Shown: in pieces, positions 22,476-64,000 of the stretch
Position numbering within the stretch: the first letter of the stretch is position 1
Layout of the letters: each line of letters opens with the position of its first letter
Assembly (NCBI RefSeq): GCF_035084215.1
Contig: NC_090365.1
Coordinates: 9,610,001-9,674,000, forward strand
DNA: 64,000 nt
Direction: 5' to 3'
From: Heptranchias perlo
Taxonomy: Eukaryota
Made by a program: the position numbers and the translations under genes
The notes under the pieces: model-generated
What the model saw: the letters and a program-made list of their open reading frames with translations, nothing else
Database searches by the model: none
Told to the model about the DNA's origin: nothing

Positions 22476-22598
22476 CCACACGGACTGCAGCGATTCAAGA
22501 AGGCGGCTCACCACCACCTTCTCGAGGGCAATTAGGGATGGGCAATAAATGCCGGCCTCGCCAGTGACGCCTACATCCCATAAGTGAATTTAAAAAAG
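22476..22598 (+). mobile_element. Short 3' tail copy of the LINE family at 60195-63529
   Basis: Near-identical to about 63408-63529 (CACACGGACTGCAGCG...GGGCAATTAGGGATGGGCAATAAATG). Confidence 0.9.
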
Positions 22599-24249
22599 TT
22601 TCCGAATCAAATGTGCAAATCATTTTATGACCCCCAAATCATTTGGGAGAGATTTTGAGCAGAAGCTGAGCGTGGATTTACGTCTCACTTCTCTACCACT
22701 TTATTATCAGACTGCTGTAAATAAATGGGTGGGAGACGGATCCTGTTTATAGCAGGTAATCCTTGTATTATATCTGGTGTGTGATGTGTACAATGGACTG
22801 TGGCAGTTTGATCTGGCAGATTGGTTGTTCAAGCCCAGGTGTCCAAATGTAAGTCAACTTTTCCACAACTTAACCCATCACAAACATCAAATGTGTCCGA
22901 TGACACAGTCTCAGCTACTCTGGGACATCGTGCCTGGAGAGACTTGTTCTTCACAGACCTGGAGCTCACCTCTCTTGGGGCACAAGCAGGCCTTGCCTGC
23001 CTATAAGAAAGCTGATTGGGTCTGGCACCACTCCACACTCTTGTAGCCAGTTAGAGAAGCACGCCGTGCAGTGCCAGAGTACAGGCGGACTGTCTTAGGA
23101 TTGCATGCTTGAGGTTTCAGTCTGTACCAGAAAAAAAACACAACTAAAGGAATGCTCAGCCGGTCAGGCAGCATCTGTGAAAAGAATATATCTCTGGTGT
23201 GGCCCCTTCATCAGAACTGGGATGAAAGGAATGCTGTGTGTTCCTTTGCCATTTTCTATATTTAAACCTATTGTAATTCTCCCTTGGGCTTCTTGGAGGC
23301 CAATTAGGTTCACTGCAGTGCCATCTTGTGGCCACACTTGCTTTTGGAAAAATATTAGTTGCCAACCAGACAAATTTCCCATAGAAGTTGCAATAAATAG
23401 ATAGGTCAATGGGCACATCTTGGCTCATCCATCCAGAAATAGTCCTCCCATTGTTAATTAATTTTGGGGTTTTACCTCCACTACTTGAAGTCCATGCCTT
23501 TTGATTGATACTGGTCCTAAATTTGCCTTTTAATAGCTTGAACCCGTGTCCTCTTAACATTCTCCTGCAATTTAGAGTCATGTAAGTACAGCACAAAAAG
23601 CCATTTGACCCCATAGCAATCTGAAGTGAAAACCAGTGATGCAGTCTCTCCCCTCACTCTTGTATCTTCCTGTTACAATTTTTTTTTAAATCTACTTTTC
23701 CCTTAAAAGATGCATTGGCATCATTAACTACCCTCTGGCCCAGCAGTATTGAGGTAAGAGGGAGAAGCAAGAAGATTAAATTTCCCTTGCAGTTGCAGAT
23801 TTGGGGTAGGCACTGTCATTTAAATATGTAGGGTTTAAATAACAGGCTCCCCATCTACTATAACTTAGAATTTAATAGAGAAAAACATCCCATTGCATTT
23901 CAGAGGCATAACCCATCTGGATCTATATGGTGTCATTGCACTATTTGGAGAGGAACAAGGAGTTTTCCCATTTCTGGCCAATCAGAAACCGATTAAAGTG
24001 AAACCTGTACATTAGACATCTAAGGGACTGGCACCACATGTCCTTTTCTTGTACGTGTCTTTATTTTCAAAATAGTCATTGAATGTACTGTAAAAAAAAT
24101 TTTCAACAACCTTGAACCAGCTGCAACAATGCTAAGGACTTAAGTTTGGAAGTGAATAGGTCAACAAAACTGATGTGCCAGGTACAGCACCTGTAAAGTG
24201 GAGCTTGTTTCCAACCACACTCGGACGTCACAACTGTACTGTGGGATTG

Positions 24250-24384
24250 GGTGCGTGTGCAGCTAATGGATCTGCGTTGGGTGTGTGCATATCTGGGTCC
24301 GCGTGGAATCTGGTGCGTGCACATCTGGGTCCGTATGGAGTTGGGTGCACGTCTGGGTCCGCGTGGAGTCGGGTGCGTGCGCGT
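24250..24384. repeat. Degenerate tandem repeat of about 30 bp
   Basis: Recurrent GGTGCGTGCACATCTGGGTCCGCGTGGA-like units. Confidence 0.6.
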
Positions 24385-35663: not shown

Positions 35664-36380
35664 TAATCCCACTGCCCCGCTCTCTCTCCATTACCCCGTA
35701 TCAATCCCAAACTAACCCCACTGCCCCGCTGTCTCTCCATTACCCCGTATCAATCCCAAACTAACCCCACTGCCCCGCTCTCTCCCCATAGCCCTGTATC
35801 AATCCCAAACTAACCCCACTGCCCCGCTCTCTCCCCATAGCCCTGTATCAATCCCAAACTAACCCCACTGCCTCGCTCTCTCCCCATAGCCCTGTATCAA
35901 TCCCAAACTAACCCCACTGCCCTGCGCTCTCCCCATTACCCCGTATCAATCCCAAACTAACCCCACTGCCCCGCTCTCTCCCCATAGCCCTGTATCAATC
36001 CCAAACTAACCCCACTGCCCCGCTCTCTCCCCATAGTCCTGTATCAATCCCAAACTAATCGCACTGACCCGCTCTCTCCCCATAGTCCTGTATCAATCCA
36101 AAACTAACCCCACTGCCCCGCTCTCTCCCCATAGCCCTGTATCAATCCCAAACTAACCCCACTGCCCCGCTCTCTCCCCATAGTCCTGTATCAATCCCAA
36201 ACTAACCCCACTGCCCCGCTCTCTCCCCATAGCCCTCTCCCCATAGTCCTGTATCAATCCCAAACTAATCGCACTGACCCGCTCTCTCCCCATAGTCCTG
36301 TATCAATCCAAAACTAATTGCACTGCCCCACTCTCTCCCCATAGCCCAGTATCAGTCCCAAACTAACCCCACTGCCCTGC
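35664..36380. repeat. 49-bp minisatellite (about 14 copies) derived from an antisense CR1 tail
   Basis: Unit CTAACCCCACTGCCCCGCTCTCTCCCCATAGCCCTGTATCAATCCCAAA, period 49, directly preceded by antisense CR1-tail sequence. Confidence 0.9.
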
Positions 36381-36587
36381 TGTTTTATCTTGAAATGTCC
36401 GTGATTTTGCCCCTCAGTCATGGGCACTTGTCTCCAACCAGAAGTCTATCAGGAGCCAAGTTGAGAAACACAGGCACCAAACTGTACAGAGTGTCTAATG
36501 GTGACAACTCAAACATTAAGGTGATTTGCCGATGGAAATATGTGTTCTGGTAAATAAACATTAATTATCCAGATGGAGGGAGCTTAT

Positions 36588-39869: not shown

Positions 39870-39918
39870 GTGAGTATGAAGCACACACTAGAGGTTGATG
39901 TGGTAGCTGGGTGGGCAG

Positions 39919-41423
39919 CCAGTTAGCTTAACATCTGTGGTGGGTAAAATTTTGGAGTCTATTATTAAGGAGACAGTAACGGAACATTTAGATAAGCATA
40001 ATTTAATAGGACAAAGTCAGCATGGCTTTATGAAGGGGAAGTCATGTCTGACAAATTTGCTTGAGTTCTTCGAGGATATAACGTATAGGGTGGATAAAGG
40101 GGAACCAGTGGACATAGTGTATTTAGACTTCCAGAAGGCATTCGACAAGGTGCCACATAAAAGATTATTACTTAAGATAAAAAATCACGGGATTGGGGGT
40201 AATATTCTGGCATGGGTGGAGGATTGGTTATCGAACAGGAAGCAGAGAGTTGGGATAAATGGTTCATTTTCGGACTGGCAACCAGTAACCAGTGGTGTTC
40301 CACAGGGGTCAGTGCTGGGTCCCCAAATCTTTACAATCTATATTAACGATTTGGAGGAGGGGACCGAGTGCAACATATCAAAATTTGCAGATGATACAAA
40401 GATGGGAGGGAAAGTAGAGAGTGAGGAGGACATAAAAAACCTGCAAGGGGATATAGACAGGCTGGGTGAGTGGGCGGAGATTTGGCAGATGCAATATAAT
40501 ATTGGAAAATGTGAGGTTATGCACTTTGGCAGGAAAAATCAGAGAGCAAGTTATTTTCTTAATGGCGAGAGACTGGAAAGTACTGCAGTACAAAGGGATC
40601 TGGGGGTCCTCGTGCAAGAAAATCAAAAAGTTGGTATGCAGGTGCAGCAGGTGATCAAGAAAGCCAACGGAATGTTGGCTTTTATTGCTAGGGGGATAGA
40701 ATATAAAAACAAGGAGGTATTGCTGCAGTTATATAAGGTATTGGTGAGACCGCACCTGGAATACTGCATACAGTTTTGGTCTCCATACTTAAGAAAAGAC
40801 ATACTTGCTCTCGAGGCAGTACAAAGAAGGTTCACTCGGTTAATCCCGGGGATGAGGGGGCGGACATATGAGGAGAGGTTGAGTAGATTGGGACTCTACT
40901 CATTGGAGTTCAGAAGAATGAGAGGCGATCTTATTGAAACATATAAGATTGTGAAGGGTCTTCATCGGGTGGATGCAGTAAGGATGTTCCCAAAGATGGG
41001 TGAAACTAGAACTAGGGGGCATAATCTTAGAATAAGGGGCTGCTCTTTCAAAACTGAGATGAGGAGAAACTTCTTCACTCAGAGGGTGGTAGGTCTGTGG
41101 AATTTGCTGCCCCAGGAAGCTGTGGAAGCTACATCATTAGATAAATTTAAAACAGAAATAGACAGTTTCCTAGAAGTAAAGGGAATTAGGGGTTATGGGG
41201 AGCGGGCAGGAAATTGGACATGAAGCTGAGTTCGGATCGGTCAATGCCCTGTGGGTGGCGGAGAGGGCCCAGGGGCTGTGTGGCCGGGTCCTGCTCCGAC
41301 TTCTTGTGTTCTTTAGATTTGTGGTTGGGATCAGATCAGCCATGATCTTATTGAATGGCGGAGCAGGCTCGAGGGGCCGATTGGCCTACTCCTGCTCCAA
41401 TTTCTTATGTTCTTATGTTCTTA
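39919..41423 (+). mobile_element. Young 5'-truncated CR1 LINE with uninterrupted RT C-terminal ORF (39937-41223)
   Basis: QHGFMKGKSCLTNL, DFQKAFDKV, GVPQGSVLGP, FADD, LVRPHLEYC motifs; ends in (TTCTTATG)n. Confidence 0.95.
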
Positions 41424-58366: not shown

Positions 58367-60194
58367 GTAAGGCTGGTAATCCATATTGGTAGATTTGTTG
58401 ATGCAAACAAGTCAATTTGGTTGGATACATTCTAATAAATTTTAGATGCTTAAGGACCGTACAGTGAGTTGTATTAATAGAGGTTCATATCCAACCCAAT
58501 GGACCCTCTGATAAATGTTTATTCTTCCCTCCCTTCCTGATTCTGACAAGTTGCTCTTGCTCAGTGAGTGATGTGGAGAAAACACTTGCGTCTGTACTTT
58601 GATTTTTTCCCTTTTTATTATGCTTCAAGCACAGTTAGCCTTATACCATACCTAAAGTAGGTTGGAGCTGTGTTCTCTGCAGCCAAATTGCATACTGTTT
58701 CAATTACGTGGTTATAATCTTTCTTATTTATTGTGTGGACATTAAAATATCCATTTCTTAGGAAACTGCAAATAGTTTCCTTCTGTCCAATACAGAAAAT
58801 GGAGCCCATTTGAAACTTACACTTAAAATTCTGATTTGATTGTAGAAATTTTGCATATAAACAGGCTTGACTGTGTTGTTACAGTCTTGTAATCTCCTTA
58901 GTTTAATTGTTTCTCCTCCCCCTATCCCTTTTGATTGTCATTTCCACTTCTGAGATTGCAGCCAGGTCTTCCCATGCCCTGAATTTTAAAAAAAGAAACT
59001 TTGAAACCTAAGACAATTTATAGCTGTCCCTGATGGCACAGTTCATTTTATCTCATTTTTGTATTTCCATGACTATATTTAGTTTGTATAGTTATGTAAT
59101 GTTTTTCTCTAACCTCAGGTAATGCTTCTAATAAAAAATTACTAATTTCTTCCTGATCACCACTTGAAAAATTTTAGGACATGTTTGTTGTTCACTCTTC
59201 CCCTGGAGGTTTCTGACTCATCACAGCTGAGTTGAATCCTGTCCTTGCTCAATGGAACACTCATGCACTTTCAAGCAAGGGTAACTAGCAGTCATGTTTT
59301 TAGGACTTTTAGATATTTCTTTCATCCATGTGCCAAAGCCCACTTATGTAGTTGTATAAGTACTCCCTAGAAGCTGGAATGTGGCTTTCTATGCAGTGTG
59401 CCTGGTAGTGTAGCTCACTAAACAGACATAAGCCCTCACATCATCCTAATCTTTGGAAAGCATAAACGCTATTGGAACACGCGACTTAAACTGTACACTA
59501 GAAATCTGATTGATTACAAGTGAAAGATAGTGGAAAATTAATGGTGATGATTTTACTCGCTTATATCTGCTCATGTGCAAAAAGAATAAGACATAACACT
59601 TTATTAGTAATACTAAATCTGGGCCAGTGTCCGTAACATAACTAGTATGTGAGTTTCATCTATCAATTCGGAATGGCAACATCTGTCTCGAGCTCGGAAA
59701 AGCTCCAATTGCCAAAGCGTGCTTGGGTCAGATTTACCTCTTTTTTGAAGTAGAAACTGGGACAGTGGAAATCAAAAATGTATCTTGCACAGTAAAAGCT
59801 GTCAATCATCCTTATGAACCGGCACACAGAGTGGGTCAGCTGTCGTGGGTTTGCTCCCCACCCCTTCCCGTGCCAGTCGATTCAGAATAGATGTTGTTTA
59901 CAAATTTGATTGTAACTTGGTGCAGCAGCCCCCACCCTCTTTGACACTAGTTGTTCTTCAGCACATAGCTGGCATGTTTGCCGCATGGTTACTTAATGGA
60001 GTCACACCTATTAGCTCGTGACACTTATTTGTATGTGAAAAATGCGGTAGACTGGTCCCTTCAACAGTGTTAATTTCTAAGGGACAGAGCAACCCAAGTC
60101 TCCGGTGAAACGAATTTTAAAGTGACCAATCACATCTTAAATTCAGAAGAGACCTAATGGTTTGGAATATGATTGATCCCTGTTGTAAGCAATA

Positions 60195-63100
60195 GGGTAC
60201 GGTAGCATAGTGGTTATGTTACTGGGCTAGTAATCCAGAGGCCTAGACTAAAATCCAGAGTCATGAGTTCAAATCCCGCCACGGCAGCTGGCGAATTTAA
60301 ATTCAATTAATTAATTAAATTCAATTAATTAAATAAAAAAATCTGGAATTAAAATACTAGTATCAGTAATGATGGCCATGAAACTACCGGATTGTCGTAA
60401 AAACCCATCTGGTTCACTAATGTCCTTTAGGGAAGGAAGCCTGCCGCCCTTACCCAGTCTGGCCGATATGTGACTCCAGACCCACAGCAATGTGGTTGAT
60501 TCTTAATTGCCCTCTGAAATGGCCTAGCAAGCCACTCAGTTGTAAAATCTCGCTACGAAAAGTCATAATAAGAATAAAACCGGACGGACCACCCGGCATC
60601 GGACCACTAGGCACCGGACACGACAACGGCAAAACACCAAGCCCAGTCGATCCTGCAAGGTCCTCCTTACTAACATCTGGGGACTTGTGCCAAAATTGGG
60701 AGAGCTGTCCCACAGACTAGTCAAGCAACAGCCTGACATAGCCATACTCACAGAATCATATCTTTCAGCCAACGTCCCAGACTCTTCCATCACCATCCCT
60801 GGGTATGTCCTGTCCCACCGGCAGGACAGACCCACCAGAGGTGGCGGTACAGTGATATACAGTCAGGAGGGAGTGGCCCTGGGAGTCCTCAACATTGACT
60901 CTGGCCCCCATGAAATCTCATGGCATCAGGTCAAACATGGGCAAGGAAACCTCCTGCTGATTACCACCTACCGTCCTCCCTCAGCTGATGAATCAGTCCT
61001 CCTCCATGTTGAACACCACTTGGAGGAAGCACTGAGGGTAGCAAGGGCACAAAATGTACTCTGGGTGGGGGACTTCAATGTCCATCACCAAGAGTGGCTC
61101 GGTAGCACCTCTACTGACCGAGCTGGCCGAGTCCTGAAGGACATAGCTGCTAGACTGGGCCTGCGGCAGGTGGTGAGCGAACCAACACGAGGGAAAAACT
61201 TACTTGACCTCGTCCTCACCAATCTACCTGTCGCAAATGCATCTGTCCATGACAGTATTGGTAGGAGTGACCACCGCACAGTCCTCGTGGAGATGAAATC
61301 CCGTCTTCGCACTGAGGACACCATCCAACGTGTTGTGTGGCACTACCACCGTGCTAAATGGGCTAGATTCAGAACAGATCTAGCAGCTCAAAACTGGGCA
61401 TCCATGAGGCGCTGTGGGCCATCAGCAGCAGCAGAATTGTATTCCAGCACAATCTGTAACCTCATGGCCCGGCATATTCCTCACTCTACCATTACCAACA
61501 AGCCAGGGGATCAACCCTGGTTCAATGAGGAGTGTAGAAGAGCATGCCAGGAGCAGCACCAGGCGTACCTAATAATGAGGTGCCAAGCTGGTGAAGCTAC
61601 AACTCAGGACTACATGCATGCTAAACAGCGGAAGCAACATGCTATAGACAGAGCTAAGCGATTCCACAACCAACGGATCAGATCAAAGCTCTGCAGTCCT
61701 GCCACATCCAGTCGTGAATGGTGGTGGACAATTAAACAACTAACGGGAGGAGGAGGCTCTGCAAACATCCCCATTCTCAATGATGGCGGAGTCCAGCACG
61801 TGAGTGCAAAAGACAAGGCTGAAGCGTTTGCAACCATCTTCAGCCAGAAGTGCCGAGTGGATAATCCATCTCAGCCTCCTCCCGATATCCCCACCATCAC
61901 GGAAGCCAGTCTTCGGCCAATTCGATTCACTCCACGTGATGTCAAGAAACGGCTGAGTGCACTGGATACAGCAAAGGCTATGGGCCCCGACAACATCCCA
62001 GCTGTAGTGCTGAAGACTTGTGCTCCAGAACTAGCTGCGCCTCGAGCCAAGCTGTTCCAGTACAGCTACAACACTGGCATCCACCCGACAATGTGGAAAA
62101 TTGCCCAGGTATGTCCTGTCCACAAAAAGCAGGACAAATCCAATCCGGCCAATTACCGCCCCATCAGTCTACTCTCAATCATCAGCAAAGTGATGGAAGG
62201 TGTCGTCGACAGTGCTATCAAGCGGCACTTACTCACCAATAACCTGCTCACCGATGCTCAGTTTGGGTTCCGCCAGGACCACTCGGCTTCAGACCTCATT
62301 ACAGCCTTGGTCCAAACATGGACAAAAGAGCTGAATTCCAGAGGTGAGGTGAGAGTGACTGCCCTTGACATCAAGGCAGCATTTGACCGAGTGTGGCACC
62401 AAGGAGCCCTAGTAAAATTGAAGTCAATGGGAATCAGGGGGAAAACTCTCCAGTGGCTGGAGTCATACCTGGCGCAAAGGAAGATGGTAGTGGTTGTTGG
62501 AGGCCAGTCATCTCAGCCCCAGGGCATTGCTGCAGGAGTTCCTCAGGGCAGTGTCCTTGGCCCAACCATCTTCAGCTGCTTCATCAATGACCTTCCCTCC
62601 ATCATAAGGTCAGAAATGGGGATGTTCGCTGATGACTGCACATTGTTCAGTTCCATTCGCAACCCCTCAGATAATGAAGCAGTCCGAGCCTGCATGCAGC
62701 AAGACCTGGACAACATCCAGGCTTGGGCTCATAAGTGGCAAGTAACATTTGCGCCAGATAAGTGCCAGGCAATGACCATCTCCAACAAGAGAGAGTCTAA
62801 CCACCTCCCCTTGACATTCAACGGCATTACCATCGCCGAATCCCCCACCATCAACATCCTGGGGGTCACCATTGACCAGAAACTTAACTGGACCAGCCAT
62901 ATAAATACTGTGGCTACGAGAGCAGGTCAGAGGCTGGGTATTCTGCGGCGAGTGACTCACCTCCTGACTCCCCAAAGCCTTTCCACCATCTACAAGGCAC
63001 AAGTCAGGAGTGTGATGGAATACTCTCCACTTGCCTGGATGAGTGCAGCTCCAACAACACTCAAGAAGCTCGACACCATCCAAGATAAAGCAGCCCGCTT

Positions 63101-63529
63101 GATTGGCACCCCATCCACCACCCTAAACATTCACTCCCTTCACCACCGGCGCACTGTGGCTGCAGTGTGCACCATCCACAGGATGCACTGCAGCAACTCG
63201 CCAAGGCTTCTTCGACAGCACCTCCCAAACCCGCGACCTCTACCACCTAGAAGGACAAGGGCAGCAGGCGCATGGGAACAACACCACCTGCACGTTCCCC
63301 TCCAAGTCACACACCATCCCGACTTGGAAATATATCGCCGTTCCTTCATTGTCGCTGGGTCAAAATCCTGGAACTCCCTTCCTAACAGCATTGTGGGAGA
63401 ACCGTCACCACACGGACTGCAGCGGTTCAAGAAGGCGGCTCACCACCACCTTCTCGAGGGCAATTAGGGATGGGCAATAAATGCCGGCATTGCCAGCGAC
63501 GCCCACATCCCGTGAACGAATAAAAAAAA
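60195..63529 (+). mobile_element. Apparently full-length single-ORF non-LTR retrotransposon (CR1/L2 group) with tRNA-like SINE-type head
   Basis: A box TAGCATAGTGG at 60203, B box GTTCAAATC at 60267, intact APE-RT ORF, 3' tail shared with copies at 22.5, 26.5 and 32.7 kb, A-rich end. Confidence 0.9.
60687..63467 (+). CDS. Retrotransposon APE endonuclease-reverse transcriptase; frame open from 60546 with no AUG before 61293
   Basis: EN motifs (TNIWGL just upstream, LTESYL, TTYRPP, GDFNVH, LDLVLT, SDH) and RT motifs (NYRPISLL, QFGFR, DIKAAFDRV, GVPQGSVLGP, FADD); 926 codons without a stop. Confidence 0.92.
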   Translation: MPKLGELSHRLVKQQPDIAILTESYLSANVPDSSITIPGYVLSHRQDRPTRGGGTVIYSQEGVALGVLNIDSGPHEISWHQVKHGQGNLLLITTYRPPSADESVLLHVEHHLEEALRVARAQNVLWVGDFNVHHQEWLGSTSTDRAGRVLKDIAARLGLRQVVSEPTRGKNLLDLVLTNLPVANASVHDSIGRSDHRTVLVEMKSRLRTEDTIQRVVWHYHRAKWARFRTDLAAQNWASMRRCGPSAAAELYSSTICNLMARHIPHSTITNKPGDQPWFNEECRRACQEQHQAYLIMRCQAGEATTQDYMHAKQRKQHAIDRAKRFHNQRIRSKLCSPATSSREWWWTIKQLTGGGGSANIPILNDGGVQHVSAKDKAEAFATIFSQKCRVDNPSQPPPDIPTITEASLRPIRFTPRDVKKRLSALDTAKAMGPDNIPAVVLKTCAPELAAPRAKLFQYSYNTGIHPTMWKIAQVCPVHKKQDKSNPANYRPISLLSIISKVMEGVVDSAIKRHLLTNNLLTDAQFGFRQDHSASDLITALVQTWTKELNSRGEVRVTALDIKAAFDRVWHQGALVKLKSMGIRGKTLQWLESYLAQRKMVVVVGGQSSQPQGIAAGVPQGSVLGPTIFSCFINDLPSIIRSEMGMFADDCTLFSSIRNPSDNEAVRACMQQDLDNIQAWAHKWQVTFAPDKCQAMTISNKRESNHLPLTFNGITIAESPTINILGVTIDQKLNWTSHINTVATRAGQRLGILRRVTHLLTPQSLSTIYKAQVRSVMEYSPLAWMSAAPTTLKKLDTIQDKAARLIGTPSTTLNIHSLHHRRTVAAVCTIHRMHCSNSPRLLRQHLPNPRPLPPRRTRAAGAWEQHHLHVPLQVTHHPDLEIYRRSFIVAGSKSWNSLPNSIVGEPSPHGLQRFKKAAHHHLLEGN

Positions 63530-63821
63530 GGAATGCAGAAACCGTGACTGATATCCTCCCTCACTCTCTTGTGGAGATGGAAACTTGTATTCTAAACACT
63601 CGAAGCTTGTCAGTTTGGTAGTTAGTCAGCCACATTACCCGTGACTGAGTTTTTAAAGATCGGGAGTTGTGCACTTTTTTTTCAGAATGGATAAGTTAAC
63701 AGAACTGGATTTCTCAGTATCTAATGTCTTGGAATTATTCTTCATGCTCTTCTTTGAACTGAACTTTCAGTAGTAGGATTTGCCTATAATAATCTTTTAA
63801 TACAGTACATTGATTATGCAG

Positions 63822-63960
63822 AATTTCAACCAGCTGAAATAAAGCAAGAGCCTGTGGATCAAACTGAGATCAAACAGGAGACACAGCTGAGCAGGAAGAG
63901 GCCATATGCTGACCAAGGCCATGGATATTATGAATACAGAGAGGACAGAAGTTACAGCCG
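63822..63960 (+). CDS. HNRNPUL1: hnRNP U-like 1 exon 3 (acceptor uncertain, alternative at 63771)
   Basis: EFQPAEIKQE...LSRKRPYADQGHGYYEYREDR, resembling human [21 protein letters not shown]; donor GTGAGT at 63961. Confidence 0.8.
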
Positions 63961-64000
63961 GTGAGTAACACTTGCTGCTGCTGCTGCTCCTCCCCCTCTA

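Follow-up and report, generated by a model that had tools for sequence, protein, structure and literature searches.

An intact elasmobranch Zenon LINE with a tRNA-derived head and depleted T runs: a candidate for transcription by RNA polymerase III

Can a retrotransposon that encodes its own enzymes serve as a template for RNA polymerase III (Pol III)? This question is raised by a stretch of 64,000 nucleotides (nt) from Heptranchias perlo (assembly GCF_035084215.1, contig NC_090365.1, positions 9,610,001 to 9,674,000 of the forward strand; hereafter the window, to which all positions refer). At 60195–63529 (+) it carries an intact, full-length long interspersed nuclear element (LINE) of 3335 nt, an elasmobranch Zenon, that opens with a tRNA-derived head. 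The stated rule is that LINEs are mRNAs made by RNA polymerase II (Pol II) and that Pol III makes short non-coding RNAs (PMC5786205, PMC2666806; these and the other papers are cited for the excerpts available to us). A preliminary description had proposed that this element is a Pol III transcript whose coding sequence has been purged of terminators. From the sequences of the element and its relatives, we consider it probable that Pol III transcribes it from its internal A and B boxes.

The ends of the element are common to its copies, whose flanks are unrelated. A single stop-to-stop frame of 973 codons (60546–63467, +) comprises a basic leader, an APE endonuclease, and a reverse transcriptase (RT), with Pfam matches to RVT_1 (E 3.9e-39) and Exo_endo_phos_2 (E 1.7e-13) and with the catalytic motifs present. 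Only 351 nt precede this frame, which leaves no room for a separate open reading frame 1 (ORF1), and an overlapping 99-codon frame has no Pfam match. The 973-codon frame and its two domains bear out the uninterrupted endonuclease–RT frame without ORF1 that had been described; overlooked at the time was that the first in-frame methionine is residue 250, beyond the endonuclease SDH motif at residue 241, so that no AUG of the frame precedes the endonuclease. The 3′ untranslated region (UTR) and A tail (63468–63529, +) are shared with a short interspersed nuclear element (SINE) form, and each of the 19 intact copies ends in such a tail, as does the window copy. An endonuclease probe gave 150 scored matches at 99–100% among 89,640 candidates, and many copies keep the full 973-codon frame (the 19 intact-frame copies are a subset of these 150). 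Clear target-site duplications were not found, the candidates in three of the 19 being all of low complexity. In contigs of four other organisms, which cover the element, loose ends fall at 60195 in two of four runs and at 63529 in three of the four, among the rows shown; the runs are of uncertain type and uninformative on transcript starts, ends, or strand. The window also holds 5′-truncated copies of the same family at 26485–26899 (+, 96%), 22476–22597 (+, 91%), and 32648–32768 (−, 82%).

The head (60195–60290, +) is evidently derived from tRNA-Thr(AGT). It contains an A-box-like motif, TAGCATAGTGG (60203–60213, +), and a B-box-like motif, GAGTTCAAATCC (60265–60276, +), which would form a type-2 Pol III promoter; the columns of the first are 86–100% conserved in 36 older copies and those of the second 95–100% in 37. 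Of the tRNA-like head that had been noted by eye, the two boxes stand, and relatives are called as tRNA; the window copy itself is not. ARAGORN calls tRNA-Thr(agt) in two of 13 related loci (L224, a SINE-type copy, and L044, a LINE copy), both without a 20-nt duplication of the anticodon arm that alignment places at approximately 60233–60257 (+), where L026 has a deletion. The duplication, absent from older heads, widens the spacing between the two boxes. ARAGORN calls no tRNA in the window, its head included; the head scores 13.6 bits against the Rfam tRNA model, below the cut-off of 29, and its predicted fold is no cloverleaf (z 0.68).

Is the head a chance neighbor or the family's own 5′ end? 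Of the 19 intact-frame copies, 16 begin no more than 12 nt from 60195 and the other three are truncated within the body; only one sequence-sharing pair was found among 17 flanks. A probe across the joint of body and frame yielded 40 scored matches at 93–100% among 287 candidates; 16 of 29 other loci extend to the head and 13 start within the body. When copies are selected by the head instead, 27 of 29 continue into the frame, and two jump to the tail in SINE-like fashion. An old copy of 69% identity (L247) has B box, body, and endonuclease in series. Over their first 400 nt, compared by eye, all seven published shark and ray Zenon consensus rows open with head and body and retain both boxes (the ray B box is one base short), whereas two hagfish rows and one coelacanth row have no head and contain TTTT there. 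No alternative 5′ end occurs among the copies examined. The head-to-frame join is thus family-wide and old rather than peculiar to this locus, and the tRNA-Thr-derived head is the 5′ end of the elasmobranch Zenon family. A copy of 68% identity (L070), considered as a head-less family of its own, proved to be an old and decayed member of this one. Two copies (L035, from 517 onward, and L065) repeat the initial 20–30 bases of the head at their 5′ junction, a short duplication that may stem from a template jump as reverse transcription finished.

The second unusual feature is the scarcity of T runs. From 60195 to 63529 we count no T4 runs (at least four T in a row), 8 TTT runs, and 20 stretches of at least four A; the earlier counts hold, with 20 in place of "about 19" A runs. 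The first T5 (63650–63654, +) lies in the unique flank outside the element, and a Pol III transcript of the window copy would end there. The T4-free gap from 60115 to 63650 (3535 nt) is the longest in the window, followed by one of 1850 nt, and in the 19 intact copies the first TTTT comes 2–516 nt downstream of the element. Expected numbers of TTTT are 4.5 under a base shuffle (P 0.011), 3.5 with composition-weighted codons (P 0.015), 2.4 under a synonymous codon shuffle (P 0.058), and 2.5 under a first-order Markov model (P 0.085). The wider loss is far more pronounced. TTT is the most depleted trinucleotide, at 0.43 of expectation; the frame has 6 TTT runs versus 13.5 in synonymous shuffles (P 0.0014); and at silent sites where T would give TTT or longer, T is used in 6 of 59, versus 17.4 expected (P 3.6e-4). 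Stretches with four T in 5 nt number 5 against 23.6 expected, and those with five T in 6 nt number 0 against 5.7. Runs of A, C, and G and the opposite strand are not depleted, so that the loss is confined to T on the sense strand.

The same scarcity extends to the relatives. T4 density in the element's family is 0.07–0.21 per kb in all age classes, so that other copies, too, stay below the expected rate, and of the 40 T4 runs in 327 kb of copies none at an internal site is common to more than two of about 100. None of 19 shared substitutions creates TTT, a comparison without power since the private rate predicts only 1.6. The terminator purge that had been proposed fares accordingly: the broad loss of TTT and near-terminators is a strong signal, and the absence of TTTT alone is only marginal (P roughly 0.01–0.09).

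Do LINEs without the head show equal depletion? As controls we took 80 related metagenome loci, dropping 15 without a frame of at least 400 codons. The remaining 65 frames contain 1055 T4 runs versus 1046 expected, and only one, a 401-codon fragment, has none; their TTT ratio is 0.97 ± 0.11 (minimum 0.67), compared with 0.45 in the element. The closest relative available as DNA (L101, 37% identity, no head) has 20 T4 runs versus 20.1 expected. A pattern search found no paired A and B boxes upstream of the 65 frames, several of which come with little upstream DNA, and single-protein relatives were not found in metagenome or viral contigs. Within the same genome, an equally young two-frame CR1 has 9 T4 runs versus about 10 expected (its 8 copies count as one family), and an older LINE family has 2.45 per kb, with several sites shared. 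Head-less LINEs therefore show no such depletion, neither in the 65 frames nor in the two same-genome families. The several TTTT previously noted in the CR1 of the window are five T4 runs over 39919–41423. The control copy there, at 39907–41223 (+), is 5′-truncated; full-length copies carry an esterase-type ORF1.

To which family does the element belong? A FastTree analysis of 99 RT domains groups it with lancelet, sponge-derived, and lepidopteran proteins (support 0.84), apart from the same-genome CR1; the tree holds no named Zenon reference, and the Zenon label rests on the 5′ match to published consensus rows. This phylogeny, which the preliminary description had suggested, puts the RT outside vertebrate CR1 and in a Zenon-type clade. 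We assign the element to the Zenon LINEs of the CR1 group on its single endonuclease–RT frame, lack of ORF1, and poly-A tail. Zenon has been reported from sharks, rays, coelacanth, and hagfish, in all cases without ORF1 and with poly-A tails (PMC13343379). The CarCar, ScyCan, RhiTyp, HypSab, and SquAca elements of that paper belong to this family, being about 3.3 kb long, with a poly-A tail and without ORF1, and the first 400 nt of the published elasmobranch rows match the head, body, and leader of our element by eye. The family is already published. PMC13343379, as available to us, does not describe the tRNA head, the loss of T runs, or the absence of an AUG, its main text having no mention of tRNA, polymerase III, a promoter, or a start codon and its supplement none of tRNA. 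In the open literature, no autonomous LINE with a tRNA head or with transcription by Pol III came up; that search did not extend to Repbase, Dfam, or subscription journals.

The lepidopteran Zenon (PMC6740152) is also a single-ORF element of the CR1 group with an A tail, and its deletion derivative Persaeus is a short form made of the 5′ and 3′ parts. Its 5′ region differs from ours in having no tRNA homology and no Pol III promoter, and a predicted lepidopteran protein (P0016) has a methionine ahead of the endonuclease, unlike the element. On the published record available, the loss of ORF1 is older than the acquisition of the head. The closest non-shark relatives (P0018, P0019, and P0024; 37–41% identity) come from contigs of about 3.6–4.1 kb and may be compact single-frame elements too. 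Two annotated shark and ray gene models (P0006 and P0017) contain pieces of the LINE frame, which are probably annotation artifacts.

Where does translation begin? Without an AUG before the endonuclease, it must start in an unusual way; in each of the 19 intact copies, the frame is closed upstream by the stop at 60543. Fold, column tallies, and haplotypes point to a candidate start region at 60514–60555 (+). It contains a hairpin (60514–60539) with a 7-nt loop, an AUG at 60519 that is in frame but soon meets stops at 60525 and 60543, and a conserved in-frame GCT at 60552. The leader from 60552 to 60660 behaves as coding sequence, with the frame kept in 41 of 57 indel-bearing copies versus 2 of 16 in the 5′ UTR, figures that shared events and a 15-nt repeat inflate. 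Judged by eye, the GCT stays in frame with the endonuclease in the window genome and in four published lineages, including ray, and does not in the available spiny dogfish rows. An ACG at 60555 was rejected as the start codon, as it is not conserved. No site in the conserved block varies more than 60525, with T in 69, G in 18, C in 14, and A in 1 of 103 copies; the position belongs to the hairpin loop, opens the in-frame TAG, and is silent in the +1 frame.

Three routes may be considered. Internal entry without an AUG, perhaps through pairing of the hairpin loop with the GCT, has in our estimate a little under an even chance. Its model would be the dicistrovirus intergenic internal ribosome entry site (IRES), which starts without AUG by mimicking an anticodon on its codon (PMC12221177); likewise, the 7-nt loop could pair with the GCT about 180 nt into the conserved block. 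This is a resemblance only: the element has no Rfam match to such type 6 sites, and covariation lends the pairing no support. Three to five pairs are possible between loop and GCT, and 65% of cells are paired in an alignment dominated by decayed copies. In that alignment, covariation for the loop–codon pseudoknot is no better than in shuffles (392/500); none of 11 Rfam matches up to E 10 is an IRES family; no second or third pseudoknot was identified; and the fold of the body has no excess stability (z −0.04). Initiation at the AUG at 60519, with read-through or re-initiation past both stops, is a plausible but somewhat doubtful second route. Seven of 103 copies are open from AUG or GUG at 60519 past both stops, all of them older and 90–95% identical, and AUG-independent re-initiation has been described for L1 ORF2 (PMC11485995). 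Unlikely, finally, is a frameshift out of the +1 frame that begins at an AUG at 60490. This 76-codon frame is open in 18 of 19 intact copies, has no Pfam match, and contains stops in the published ray consensus (by eye). Silent changes in the leader do not separate the frames, with three of five for the main frame and two of five for the +1 frame.

Between head and frame lies a SINE-type body serving as 5′ UTR (60291–60545, +), an A/T-rich spacer without TTTT followed by a conserved block of about 180 nt. SINE forms with the same head, body, and tail were found in L085 (1198–1603, −), L090 (1501–1932, +), L208 (3297–3583, +), and L221–L240. They are both young and old (the old copies at 70–80% identity), and their joints vary. 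A SINE joint from 60541–60544 to 63409–63472 is also seen in contigs of four of four other organisms. The SINE form would be mobilized by the LINE's own enzyme.

This non-coding form follows the plan of bipartite SINEs (PMC5786205), MetaSINEs with tRNA-Thr-like heads (PMC4824008), and SacSINE1 (PMC5499810), namely a head with A and B boxes, a conserved body, and a LINE-type tail. All of these are non-coding, whereas the element carries its head on an intact autonomous LINE; of the marks of a tRNA-derived SINE (SINE2), it has the head with both boxes but is neither short nor non-coding (3335 nt, 973 codons). SacSINE1 combines a Deu body with an L2-type tail and partner, whereas the tail of the element is that of Zenon. 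The 66-bp Meta domain, which follows a tRNA-Thr-like head, has no clear match in the body by eye (bivalve rows only), and hagfish SINE supplements contain no match to four short motifs.

How, then, might such an element have arisen and persisted? In the mechanism that we propose, an ancestral elasmobranch Zenon, already single-ORF, would have taken on, prior to the divergence of sharks and rays, a SINE's body together with its tRNA-Thr-derived head. Pol III would transcribe it from the internal A and B boxes, a promoter that travels inside the transcript to each new insertion. As the polymerase must traverse 3.3 kb, copies with T runs in the coding strand would yield truncated RNA and disappear, whereby TTTT and near-terminators would be purged from the sense strand only; that selection of this kind caused the T-run loss is what we infer. 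Transcription would halt at the first T run of the flank, as in Alu. The uncapped RNA would be translated from a non-standard start near 60519–60560 into one endonuclease–RT protein, which would prime reverse transcription at the A tail, and the SINE with the same head, body, and tail would use the same enzyme. Pol III-made RNAs can retrotranspose without ORF1 when ORF2 is supplied in trans (PMC2666806), which may explain why an ORF1-less clade could switch polymerase. Alu (PMC2666806, PMC11485995) offers the closest parallel, with its internal promoter, termination in the flank, and no need of ORF1; unlike Alu, which is non-coding and borrows L1 ORF2, the element would make an RNA about ten times longer that encodes its own enzyme. 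A missing AUG fits an RNA that is unable to use cap scanning.

Several observations weigh against Pol III transcription. The 3′ end, AATAAA and an A tail, resembles that of Pol II LINEs. The zero count of TTTT is marginal when taken alone (P 0.011 to 0.085 over the four null models). Alone in the element, TCTTT at 60761–60765 (+) resembles a moderate Pol III terminator. By column tally it is derived in the youngest subfamily, older copies having CCTTT (T in 53 of 110 copies, mean identity 97%; C in 45, mean identity 93%), and in mouse B2 constructs such a motif stops Pol III in about 50% of transcripts (PMC8466645). A few of the control LINEs are themselves mildly TTT-poor (ratio 0.67–0.70), and L101 is a single close head-less relative in the DNA comparison. 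Because the elasmobranch elements form one lineage, head and T-run loss are one evolutionary event and not replicates; and the absence of ORF1, being clade-wide in Zenon, is no evidence for Pol III. Some of these points would also suit an alternative in which the 5′ end taken from a SINE acts as a co-opted Pol II promoter or is a relic carried along. The RNA would then bear a cap and be polyadenylated, and U-rich tracts would have disappeared under some other pressure, for instance to avoid cryptic splice acceptors, premature polyadenylation, surveillance of the RNA, or detachment of the RT at U runs. The terminal AATAAA and A tail, the TCTTT tolerated in the youngest subfamily, and the lepidopteran Zenon, with no Pol III promoter reported, are in line with it. 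So is the AUG-independent start of the Pol II-made L1 ORF2 (PMC11485995), which means that a missing AUG does not require uncapped RNA. However, such pressures should hit other LINEs, and neither the 65 control frames nor the two same-genome families show the loss. Nor would one expect both boxes to be kept in all seven shark and ray rows, and the first 400 nt hold AATAAA twice and ATTAAA three times, which would be unhelpful to a Pol II unit. We therefore judge this alternative unlikely, although it deserves to be taken seriously.

A division of labor seems less probable again. Here, Pol III would make the template RNA, and the protein would be supplied in trans from capped Pol II host read-through or from the minority of copies with an open AUG, so that the element would be a very long SINE that also bears a coding frame. 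It could draw on the seven copies open from 60519 through both stops, on the sense orientation of the window copy upstream of an apparent host exon, and on the retrotransposition of Pol III RNAs with ORF2 in trans (PMC2666806); yet the open copies are older, and all 19 young intact ones have the stop at 60543. The many full 973-codon frames and the shared substitutions, 39 silent versus 29 replacing, fit selection on source elements relying on the protein that they themselves encode. There is hardly any room left for chance or targeted adjacency, in which a LINE lacking the head would have landed in or next to a SINE. The join must have been made once, by an ancient insertion or template switch, given that a SINE shares the head, body, and tail; for present-day copies adjacency is refuted by their common 5′ start amid unrelated flanks, the uniform 5′ ends of the copies examined, and the like beginnings of the seven published consensus sequences. 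Transcription of the element by Pol III thus remains the explanation that we prefer. A more complete picture is offered only tentatively: a coding retrotransposon with a captured tRNA-Thr promoter, from which Pol III makes its mRNA; cap- and AUG-independent translation of that mRNA through an entry structure in the SINE body (possibly with a mimic of the tRNA-Ala anticodon loop on the first codon); persistence since before the shark/ray split; and a SINE partner that is the same RNA minus the frame.

Downstream of the element, an apparent host exon (63821–63964, +) ends at a GT donor, and its translation, tentatively labeled, resembles hnRNP U-like proteins. The element would then lie in a host intron in the sense direction. 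Elsewhere, the window contains minisatellite arrays with units of 34–49 nt (25192–26323, 28649–29085, 33285–33572, and 35663–36381) and CpG-rich stretches at 1–2000 and 24001–26000.

What would Pol III transcription of this element mean? Young, intact, and abundant as it is, the element is directly testable in a reporter assay. Speculatively, its compact design, with one protein and an internal promoter, may interest those working on RNA-based gene insertion. A SINE and a LINE that share both ends bear on the origin of conserved SINE bodies. Above all, if our reading is true, a natural 3.3-kb coding Pol III transcript would break the rule that sets LINEs and Pol III products apart, and would show how translation, protection, and reverse transcription can proceed on an RNA that lacks a cap.

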